From a virus (Duplodnaviria > Heunggongvirae > Uroviricota > Caudoviricetes), in the IMG/VR virus record IMGVR_UViG_3300045988_149737: a DNA stretch of 64,000 bases. One strand, 5' to 3'. This document shows, piece by piece, positions 63,517-63,942 of this stretch (the stretch's first letter is position 1; each line of letters begins with the position of its first letter). The position numbers and the translations under genes are program-made. The notes under the pieces were generated by a model, which was given only the letters and a program-made list of their open reading frames with translations, did not search any database and was not told the DNA's origin.

Positions 63517-63536
63517 TACTGTATGTATATACAGTG
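63517..63536 (+). promoter_or_regulatory. LexA (SOS) box
   Basis: TACTGTATGTATATACAGTG matches CTGT-N8-ACAG; 16 bp upstream of the UmuD'-like start. Confidence 0.7.
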
Positions 63537-63552
63537 TTAAGAGGCGAGTATT

Positions 63553-63942
63553 ATGGGCTTCCCTTCTCCTGCGGCGGATTATGCTGAGAGCCGTATTTCT
63601 CTTGATCAGCAGATAATTAGACATCCTTCAGCGACCTACTTCATGAGGGCAGCTGATAGTCATCATCGTGAGGGAATATTACAGGGTGCATTGCTGGTGG
63701 TCGATTCCTCACTTACCCCGGTTGATGGTTCTCTGCTTGTATGCGCTCTGGATGGGGAATATCGCGTAAAAAGATACCGGAAGTATCCACGTCAGCATCT
63801 GGAGGATTTAAGAACCGGTAAGAAGGAAGCATTGCCAAAGGATGACGATGGATGCACGGGCAGCAATGCCGTGTTTGGTGTGATCACTCACATTATCAAC
63901 GACGCAAGAAGTGGCGAGTTTGATGATTGTCCCGTGATGTAG
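63553..63942 (+). CDS. humD: UmuD'-like protein starting at the processed N-terminus (P1 HumD-like)
   Basis: MGFPSPAADY...HPSATYF...VKR parallels UmuD from its Cys24/Gly25 cleavage site; in-frame TAA at 63538-63540 excludes a longer N-terminus. Confidence 0.65.
   Translation: MGFPSPAADYAESRISLDQQIIRHPSATYFMRAADSHHREGILQGALLVVDSSLTPVDGSLLVCALDGEYRVKRYRKYPRQHLEDLRTGKKEALPKDDDGCTGSNAVFGVITHIINDARSGEFDDCPVM

Follow-up and report, generated by a model that had tools for sequence, protein, structure and literature searches.

A putatively SOS-controlled humD gene in an SSU5-like phage-plasmid of Escherichia coli

The 64,000-nucleotide stretch of viral DNA analyzed here (hereafter called the window) ends shortly after an open reading frame on the plus strand (positions 63553–63942; 129 amino acids plus the stop codon TAG at 63940–63942) that, judged from its sequence, is an ordinary and intact copy of humD, which is known to provide phages with a pre-truncated UmuD' subunit of the error-prone DNA polymerase V. 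The locus most likely represents a self-contained, SOS-regulated accessory cassette of an SSU5-like phage-plasmid. It is highly probable that the gene is repressed by LexA and released by DNA damage, and that dimers of its product combine with host UmuC to form an active Pol V without RecA-mediated cleavage.

Identity of the protein

There is abundant evidence for an assignment of the protein to the HumD family. The NCBIfam equivalog NF051876 ("HumD family translesion DNA polymerase") covers it from end to end (residues 1–129 on model positions 1–129) with a score of 219.8 bits (cutoff, 120), and the PHROGs family phrog_811 ('UmuD-like protein') matches with an E value of 2.7e-54. The protein comprises an S24 domain only (Pfam Peptidase_S24, 37.9 bits). 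By contrast, its scores remain below the cutoffs of both the UmuD subfamily model NF007621 (87 vs. 110 bits) and the LexA equivalog TIGR00498 (27.2 vs. 110.95 bits). Amino acid identity is 100% with CYRAN_98 of the phage-plasmid Cyrano, 91% with both HumD of phage P1 (AAQ14073.1) and orf108 of D6, and about 44% with UmuD of E. coli, whose sequence as used here agrees with the alignment in the PDB.

The top matches among solved structures are UmuD' (1umu, E = 6.7e-23; 1i4v) and full-length UmuD (8gmt_B). Because the similarity to the solved UmuD' structures extends over the whole length, the fold of HumD can be regarded as settled. The alignment with 8gmt_B opens at residue 25 of UmuD (Gly25), the first residue after RecA-mediated cleavage, which bears out the original prediction that the reading frame (MGFPSPAADY...) starts at the N terminus of UmuD'. 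Homology to UmuD and HumD, and a parallel with P1 humD in particular, had likewise been proposed from the nucleotide sequence and are both evident from these comparisons.

The score with the HumD model, the start at the position of UmuD', the LexA-box sequence in front of the gene, and its orphan status are all features of HumD. The N-terminal arm with the Cys/Ala-Gly cleavage site that marks the self-cleaving proteins UmuD, MucA, and RumA is absent, and the 129-residue protein also lacks the DNA-binding domain that S24 repressors of the LexA/CI type carry at their N terminus. From these sequence features, the protein is expected to work like UmuD' yet belongs to HumD, not to the group of self-cleaving UmuD precursors.

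E. coli UmuD and HumD share the sequence of the S24 fold family, and their alignment starts with the product of cleavage at Cys24/Gly25. Unlike UmuD, however, HumD has neither the 24-residue N-terminal arm nor a cleavage site and therefore no RecA-dependent activation; it differs further by a 4-residue insertion, by 10 additional residues at the C terminus, by the replacement of GDSM with A-DSHH (one residue deleted), and by a gene that does not share an operon with umuC. With P1 HumD, the protein shares its length of 129 residues, the M-GFPSPAADY start, the AADSHH motif, and the C-terminal extension (...NDARSGEFDDCPV) past the end of UmuD.

Remodelling of the former peptidase motif

The AADSHH motif (residues 33–38) aligns with SGDSMI of UmuD via a one-residue deletion, and both residues of the catalytic dyad are kept (Ser36, equivalent to S60 of UmuD, and Lys73, equivalent to K97). 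The original prediction had drawn attention to AADSHH in place of GDSM; the replacement is indeed present but not peculiar to this copy, as the HumD proteins of P1 and D6 read identically and the Ser/Lys pair is retained.

Remodelling of this region (residues 33–39; positions 63649–63669, plus strand) is evident throughout the family. A search of a 5.8-billion-protein collection yielded 561 relatives, and across the clusters of the best 120 of them, GDSM is replaced by [ST]-H-[FYH]-R. The position equivalent to S60 is occupied by Ser in 75 clusters, by Thr in 43, and by Ala in 2, and position 35 is variable (R, A, C, N, D, or S), so that the Gly-Asp of GDSM is not conserved. In the same set, Arg39 is invariant, His37 is present in 107 of the 120 clusters, and Lys73 in 117.

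This pattern bears on the idea that HumD acts as an S24 peptidase in trans, using Ser36 and Lys73 to cleave host UmuD or another S24 substrate as a heterodimer. UmuD-like proteins are capable of intermolecular cleavage, for which evidence was reportedly obtained in the late 1990s, and the alignment of Ser36 and Lys73 with S60 and K97 and the near-universal conservation of the lysine would be in line with such an activity. However, the frequent replacement of the nucleophile by Thr, its occasional replacement by Ala, and the variability of position 35 do not resemble the pattern of a maintained protease, and UmuD' itself retains the dyad although it is not needed after processing. Given that the nucleophile varies between Ser, Thr, and Ala and that GDSM is lost across the family, a maintained peptidase function is disfavoured, and cleavage in trans is considered very improbable. 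Instead, [ST]-H-[FYH]-R may represent a remodelled functional surface, and the Thr in 43 of the 120 clusters, together with the motif itself, hints that this surface may serve a role not common to UmuD'.

Operator and transcription unit

The reading frame is preceded by a putative LexA operator of 20 bp (TACTGTATGTATATACAGTG, positions 63517–63536), which deviates in two positions from the palindromic LexA consensus TACTGTATATATATACAGTA; its core is conserved, and its counterpart in P1 is annotated as a LexA site. The gap between the box and the ATG at 63553 comprises exactly 16 bases (63537–63552), and both the near-consensus SOS box and its distance from the gene are as originally predicted. 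Only two sequences in the 64-kb window match the LexA consensus with up to three mismatches, against 0.00 expected from 100 shuffles.

A candidate humD promoter (positions 63492–63520, plus strand) consists of TTCAAA (−35) and TATACT (−10), separated by a 17-nt spacer, with a match of 9/12 in a consensus scan. Promoter-like sites of this quality are found three times in the stretch, where 2.1 are expected, and the hexamers alone are weak; it is the location relative to the LexA operator, whose first bases are shared with the predicted −10 element, that makes the case for a promoter of humD. The consensus scan also detected a divergent promoter-like site on the minus strand (positions 63511–63540; TTAACA, 18 nt, TATGTT), which overlaps the same LexA box. 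By analogy with the box common to lxr and humD in P1 and with loci that carry dinI, the operator may be shared by two divergent putative promoters.

An in-frame stop codon (TAA, positions 63538–63540, plus strand) was read from the sequence, and the list of open reading frames opens the frame at 63553. The four codons between the TAA and the ATG (GAG GCG AGT ATT) include no ATG, GTG, or TTG, and a longer precursor of HumD is therefore impossible. This agrees with the exclusion of a precursor in the original prediction, which erred only in placing the TAA immediately upstream, as it is the fifth codon before the ATG. A Shine-Dalgarno-like AAGAGG (positions 63539–63544, plus strand), also read from the sequence, lies 8 nt upstream of the start codon.

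The gene is followed by a predicted intrinsic terminator (positions 63954–63979, plus strand), which was already part of the original prediction. A terminator scan places the hairpin at 63954–63974, with a 9-bp stem that contains seven G-C pairs, a 3-nt loop, and a subsequent TTTTT; the RNA fold has a free energy of −18.6 kcal/mol (z = −5.1), and none of 200 shuffled sequences folds as well. A scan of positions 62000–64000 against Rfam with E values up to 1 yielded a chance-level match to a snoRNA (14.5 bits vs. 38) and no others.

Conservation of the operator among humD loci

A near-consensus LexA box is located upstream of humD in every lineage checked. In the 100 bp preceding the start codon, a comparison of the window with Cyrano, P1, and D6 reveals an invariant core (TACTGTAT...ACAGT) within scrambled flanks. 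The nucleotide similarity to P1 opens at the ATG (query position 353), and that to D6 and RCS47 opens slightly upstream of the LexA box. In the P1 record (AF234172), a site 19 bp upstream of humD carries the label 'LexA binding site in the regulatory region of lxr and humD', and the product is described with the note "DNA repair; functionally complements E. coli UmuD'".

The same arrangement is present in seven additional humD loci from Citrobacter prophages, N15-like (TelK-bearing) phage-plasmids of Klebsiella, and a Trabulsiella prophage, all of which (7/7) have a box with one to three mismatches a short distance upstream of humD or of the small reading frame that precedes it. LexA control of humD is well supported by this comparison across lineages and is predicted for the present copy as well. 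The text of a paper on Ref that lists qPCR primers for humD (PMC4713147) contains no result on the SOS induction of the gene.

The loci in Citrobacter and the N15-like Klebsiella phage-plasmids (L007–L012) also carry dinI, which encodes a modulator of RecA filaments, in divergent orientation across the LexA box. In the prophages of Citrobacter and Trabulsiella, an unannotated reading frame of 79–80 amino acids ends 1–2 nt before humD (L007, 3756–3998; L013, 3760–3999). Neither a gene for DinI nor this 80-residue reading frame was found in the window by tblastn.

The carrier element

The element that carries humD is, by its sequence, an E. coli phage-plasmid of the SSU5/pHCM2-like group and the Cyrano/pLF82 type. 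Cyrano, an SSU5-like siphovirus, corresponds to pLF82, the phage-plasmid carried by E. coli LF82 (PMC9928086). It is collinear with the window over nearly the whole length, with about 97% nucleotide identity (96.5–99%). The carrier is not P1.

Among the proteins encoded in the window are a DnaB-like helicase, a primase, an ATP-dependent ligase, a gp32-like single-strand-binding protein, a 5'-3' exonuclease, and the alpha subunit of DNA polymerase III (DnaE-type; positions 21334–24852). The window further carries genes for a class I ribonucleotide reductase and a thymidylate synthase and those for CobT, a dynein-related AAA ATPase (AAA_5), a Rep3 initiator, and SbcCD. The annotation of Cyrano adds UvsY, encoded just upstream of the gene for the gp32-like protein, and an exonuclease resembling the epsilon subunit of Pol III. 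The window also encodes a RecA homolog of 779 amino acids (positions 28837–31176, plus strand) that is split by a LAGLIDADG intein (Pfam RecA, Intein_splicing, and LAGLIDADG_3).

The second LexA-box-like sequence of the window (TACTGTTTACTTATACAGTA, positions 15621–15640) has three mismatches and is the only other occurrence of CTGT-N8-ACAG. It is followed after 26 bp by a gene for a tyrosine recombinase/integrase (positions 15667–16770, plus strand), with TTGACT at 15586–15591 as a possible −35 element nearby, and is conserved in Cyrano except for the last base. Its position suggests a recombinase under SOS control on the phage-plasmid.

The region of approximately 800 bp in front of humD (positions 62750–63552) is devoid of annotated genes in Cyrano and in over 80 related plasmids of E. 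coli, the majority of which have a size of about 100–120 kb. The 800 bp upstream of the gene are present in 181 plasmid records, mostly of non-mobilizable E. coli plasmids, and the best-matching plasmids measure about 100–150 kb. The region contains a 20-nt direct repeat (AGTCGCCAGATACTTA(C/T)GGC at 62963 and 63136) and a hairpin with a perfect 13-bp stem (positions 63187–63221), whose flanking runs of A and T resemble those of a bidirectional terminator.

A reading frame of 61 amino acids (positions 63277–63462, minus strand) is located between this hairpin and the LexA box, in a position where it could be expressed from the divergent promoter-like site (63540..63511) under the operator of humD. 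The first 31 residues resemble phrog_28987, a family without an assigned function (E = 2.7e-11); no match was obtained for the remainder, and a convincing ribosome-binding site was not seen. By eye, it bears no resemblance to the translated sequences of P1 Lxr and D6 orf106. The reading frame is possibly a remnant, or else a small gene induced in the SOS response.

Absence of a umuC partner

The absence of a umuC-like gene next to humD, which had been part of the original prediction, could not be read from the window, which ends only 58 bp past the stop codon, but is nevertheless borne out by the window and by the genome of Cyrano, the nearest relative. The following gene in Cyrano is convergent (CYRAN_99, 'Septum site-determining protein MinD'; annotated as apbC in related plasmids), and its stop codon is located at the equivalent of positions 63980–63982; the window includes only the 3' end of this ParA/MinD(ApbC)-like gene (positions 63980–64000, minus strand). 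The next gene but one downstream of humD in Cyrano encodes a methionyl-tRNA synthetase (OV696614, 90996–93029) and would lie just beyond the end of the window; Cyrano also possesses tRNA-Asn, tRNA-Thr, and tRNA-Ser elsewhere in its genome, an unusual cargo for a phage-plasmid.

Searches of the window and of the complete 108-kb genome of Cyrano with UmuC and DinB (tblastn) gave no better match than E = 0.16 over 71 amino acids. The UmuC query was confirmed by Pfam as a protein with IMS, IMS_C, and DUF4113 domains. None of the 22 reading frames of at least 250 amino acids in the window has an IMS domain in Pfam, the annotation of Cyrano lists no Y-family polymerase, and an IMS gene is absent within 4 kb of humD in the seven other loci. 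Beyond the window, the source replicon is probably also free of umuC, by analogy with Cyrano. Because the element does not provide a polymerase partner, that partner must be encoded on the host chromosome.

Distribution and selection of the family

The best 120 of the 561 relatives stem from Escherichia, Citrobacter, Klebsiella, Salmonella, Enterobacter, Kluyvera, and Trabulsiella and mostly have a length of 126–130 amino acids. The M-G-FPSP start is present in 107 of the 120 clusters, and the longer entries, which still contain an internal M-GFPSP, seem to have been given a start codon too far upstream. Many of the relatives have already been named "HumD family translesion DNA polymerase" by NCBI and UniRef. 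HumD-like genes occur in P1, P7, D6, RCS47, SJ46, N15, phiKO2, HK140, HK639, BTP1, and others; this spread among unrelated temperate elements identifies the humD cassette as a mobile accessory gene.

The homologs in P1 and D6 differ from the present gene mainly at synonymous sites (dS = 0.60–0.77; dN = 0.042–0.046). The resulting dN/dS ratios of 0.055 (vs. P1) and 0.076 (vs. D6) indicate that humD is under strong purifying selection. This is difficult to reconcile with a functionless reading frame, be it a decaying remnant of umuDC or a repressor fragment that has lost its DNA-binding domain, despite the lack of both a UmuD N-terminal arm and a umuC neighbour and despite the annotation in Cyrano as merely a 'LexA-like peptidase S24'. 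The reading frame is intact and equipped with an operator, a ribosome-binding site, and a terminator of its own, and the 126–130-residue architecture recurs in hundreds of clusters across Enterobacteriaceae. A pseudogene or remnant of a umuDC operon was rejected on the basis of dN/dS and the family-wide conservation, and a repressor fragment on the basis of the family scores, with just 27 bits for the LexA equivalog against a cutoff of 111. Together, the data on selection and conservation effectively refute a loss of function, which is given almost no credence.

Proposed role in the SOS response

The sequence of the locus and its conservation suggest the following scenario. In an undamaged lysogen, host LexA would occupy the operator at 63517–63536, covering the −10 element and the start region, and keep humD off. 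Upon DNA damage, RecA would become active and elicit the self-cleavage of LexA, and humD would be transcribed up to the hairpin terminator. As the product already begins at the equivalent of Gly25 of UmuD, HumD should not need RecA-mediated self-cleavage. By homology, the HumD dimer is expected to bind host UmuC and RecA filaments, which would yield a translesion polymerase of the Pol V type. The enzyme would operate with RecA-ATP and bypass the slow cleavage of UmuD that delays mutagenic synthesis. In this manner, damage tolerance and SOS mutagenesis would be supplied or accelerated for both the host and the element.

HumD of P1 reportedly takes the place of UmuD' in vivo, forms dimers, and binds UmuC and RecA filaments, but is said to be poorly expressed, with good complementation only from a plasmid of high copy number. 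For this reason, it is uncertain how much the role in Pol V matters physiologically.

The gene content of the element raises the question of whether HumD, as a modulator induced by damage, acts mainly on proteins of the replisome or of recombination, i.e., the alpha, epsilon, or beta subunits of Pol III or RecA filaments, rather than on UmuC. The element possesses its own Pol III alpha subunit, an intein-containing RecA, a gp32-like protein, and a 5'-3' exonuclease, to which the annotation of Cyrano adds UvsY and the epsilon-like exonuclease. In P1, humD is located near hot, a homolog of the gene for the theta subunit, and in other lineages, its divergent neighbour is dinI, the gene for a modulator of RecA filaments. 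The conservation of the family-specific [ST]-H-[FYH]-R motif would also fit a separate target, and the products of the umuD gene are known to bind subunits of Pol III. By contrast, the only experimentally supported activity of P1 HumD is UmuD'-like and runs via UmuC and RecA. Moreover, a role specific to the replisome of the element is not required, because humD is common in phages without replisome genes (N15, HK140, HK639, and BTP1). Such a shift in targets is therefore considered unlikely, and there is only a small chance that HumD acts on DnaE, the epsilon-like exonuclease, RecA, UvsY, and gp32 of the element itself, perhaps via the [ST]-H-[FYH]-R surface. If it did, humD would represent a LexA-timed switch on phage-plasmid replication and not simply a Pol V subunit. 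The formation of Pol V with host UmuC remains the strongly preferred reading.

Relation to other humD systems and significance

The existence of humD, its pre-truncation, its LexA box, and the absence of umuC were already described for phage P1 between 1999 and 2004, and a curated NCBI family model covers proteins of this kind. The locus resembles that of P1 in the LexA box upstream of the gene (16 bp here, 19 bp in P1) and in the lack of an adjacent umuC. However, P1 is a myovirus, whereas the present carrier is an SSU5-like siphovirus phage-plasmid, and the flanking regions are unrelated: humD of P1 is preceded by lxr and hot and followed by phd-doc, whereas here an unannotated stretch of approximately 800 bp lies upstream and a convergent ParA/MinD-like gene downstream.

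Gp26 of N15, Gp23 of phiKO2, and the homologs in HK140, HK639, and BTP1 are members of the HumD family with 63–71% identity and are encoded by orphan genes in temperate phages; the matched spans correspond to about 124–129 codons, similar to the size of the present gene. In the N15-like elements of Klebsiella, a LexA box with one or two mismatches is located 44 bp upstream of humD, but it is common to humD and a divergent dinI, a gene absent from the window.

The present analysis makes a modest addition to this body of knowledge. It places a cassette of LexA box and humD in the SSU5-like phage-plasmids, where the label in Cyrano does not go beyond 'LexA-like peptidase S24' and for which the literature collection searched contains no paper that names SSU5 together with UmuD. 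It also indicates that the cassette is transferred as a unit among unrelated temperate elements, its operator being kept, and that the former peptidase motif is remodelled family-wide. The significance lies mainly in a correct annotation. SSU5-like elements are frequent among E. coli from clinical and animal sources, as indicated by the 181 plasmid records that contain the upstream region, and a damage-inducible, pre-activated Pol V subunit on such plasmids, although not a new idea, could affect stress-induced mutagenesis.
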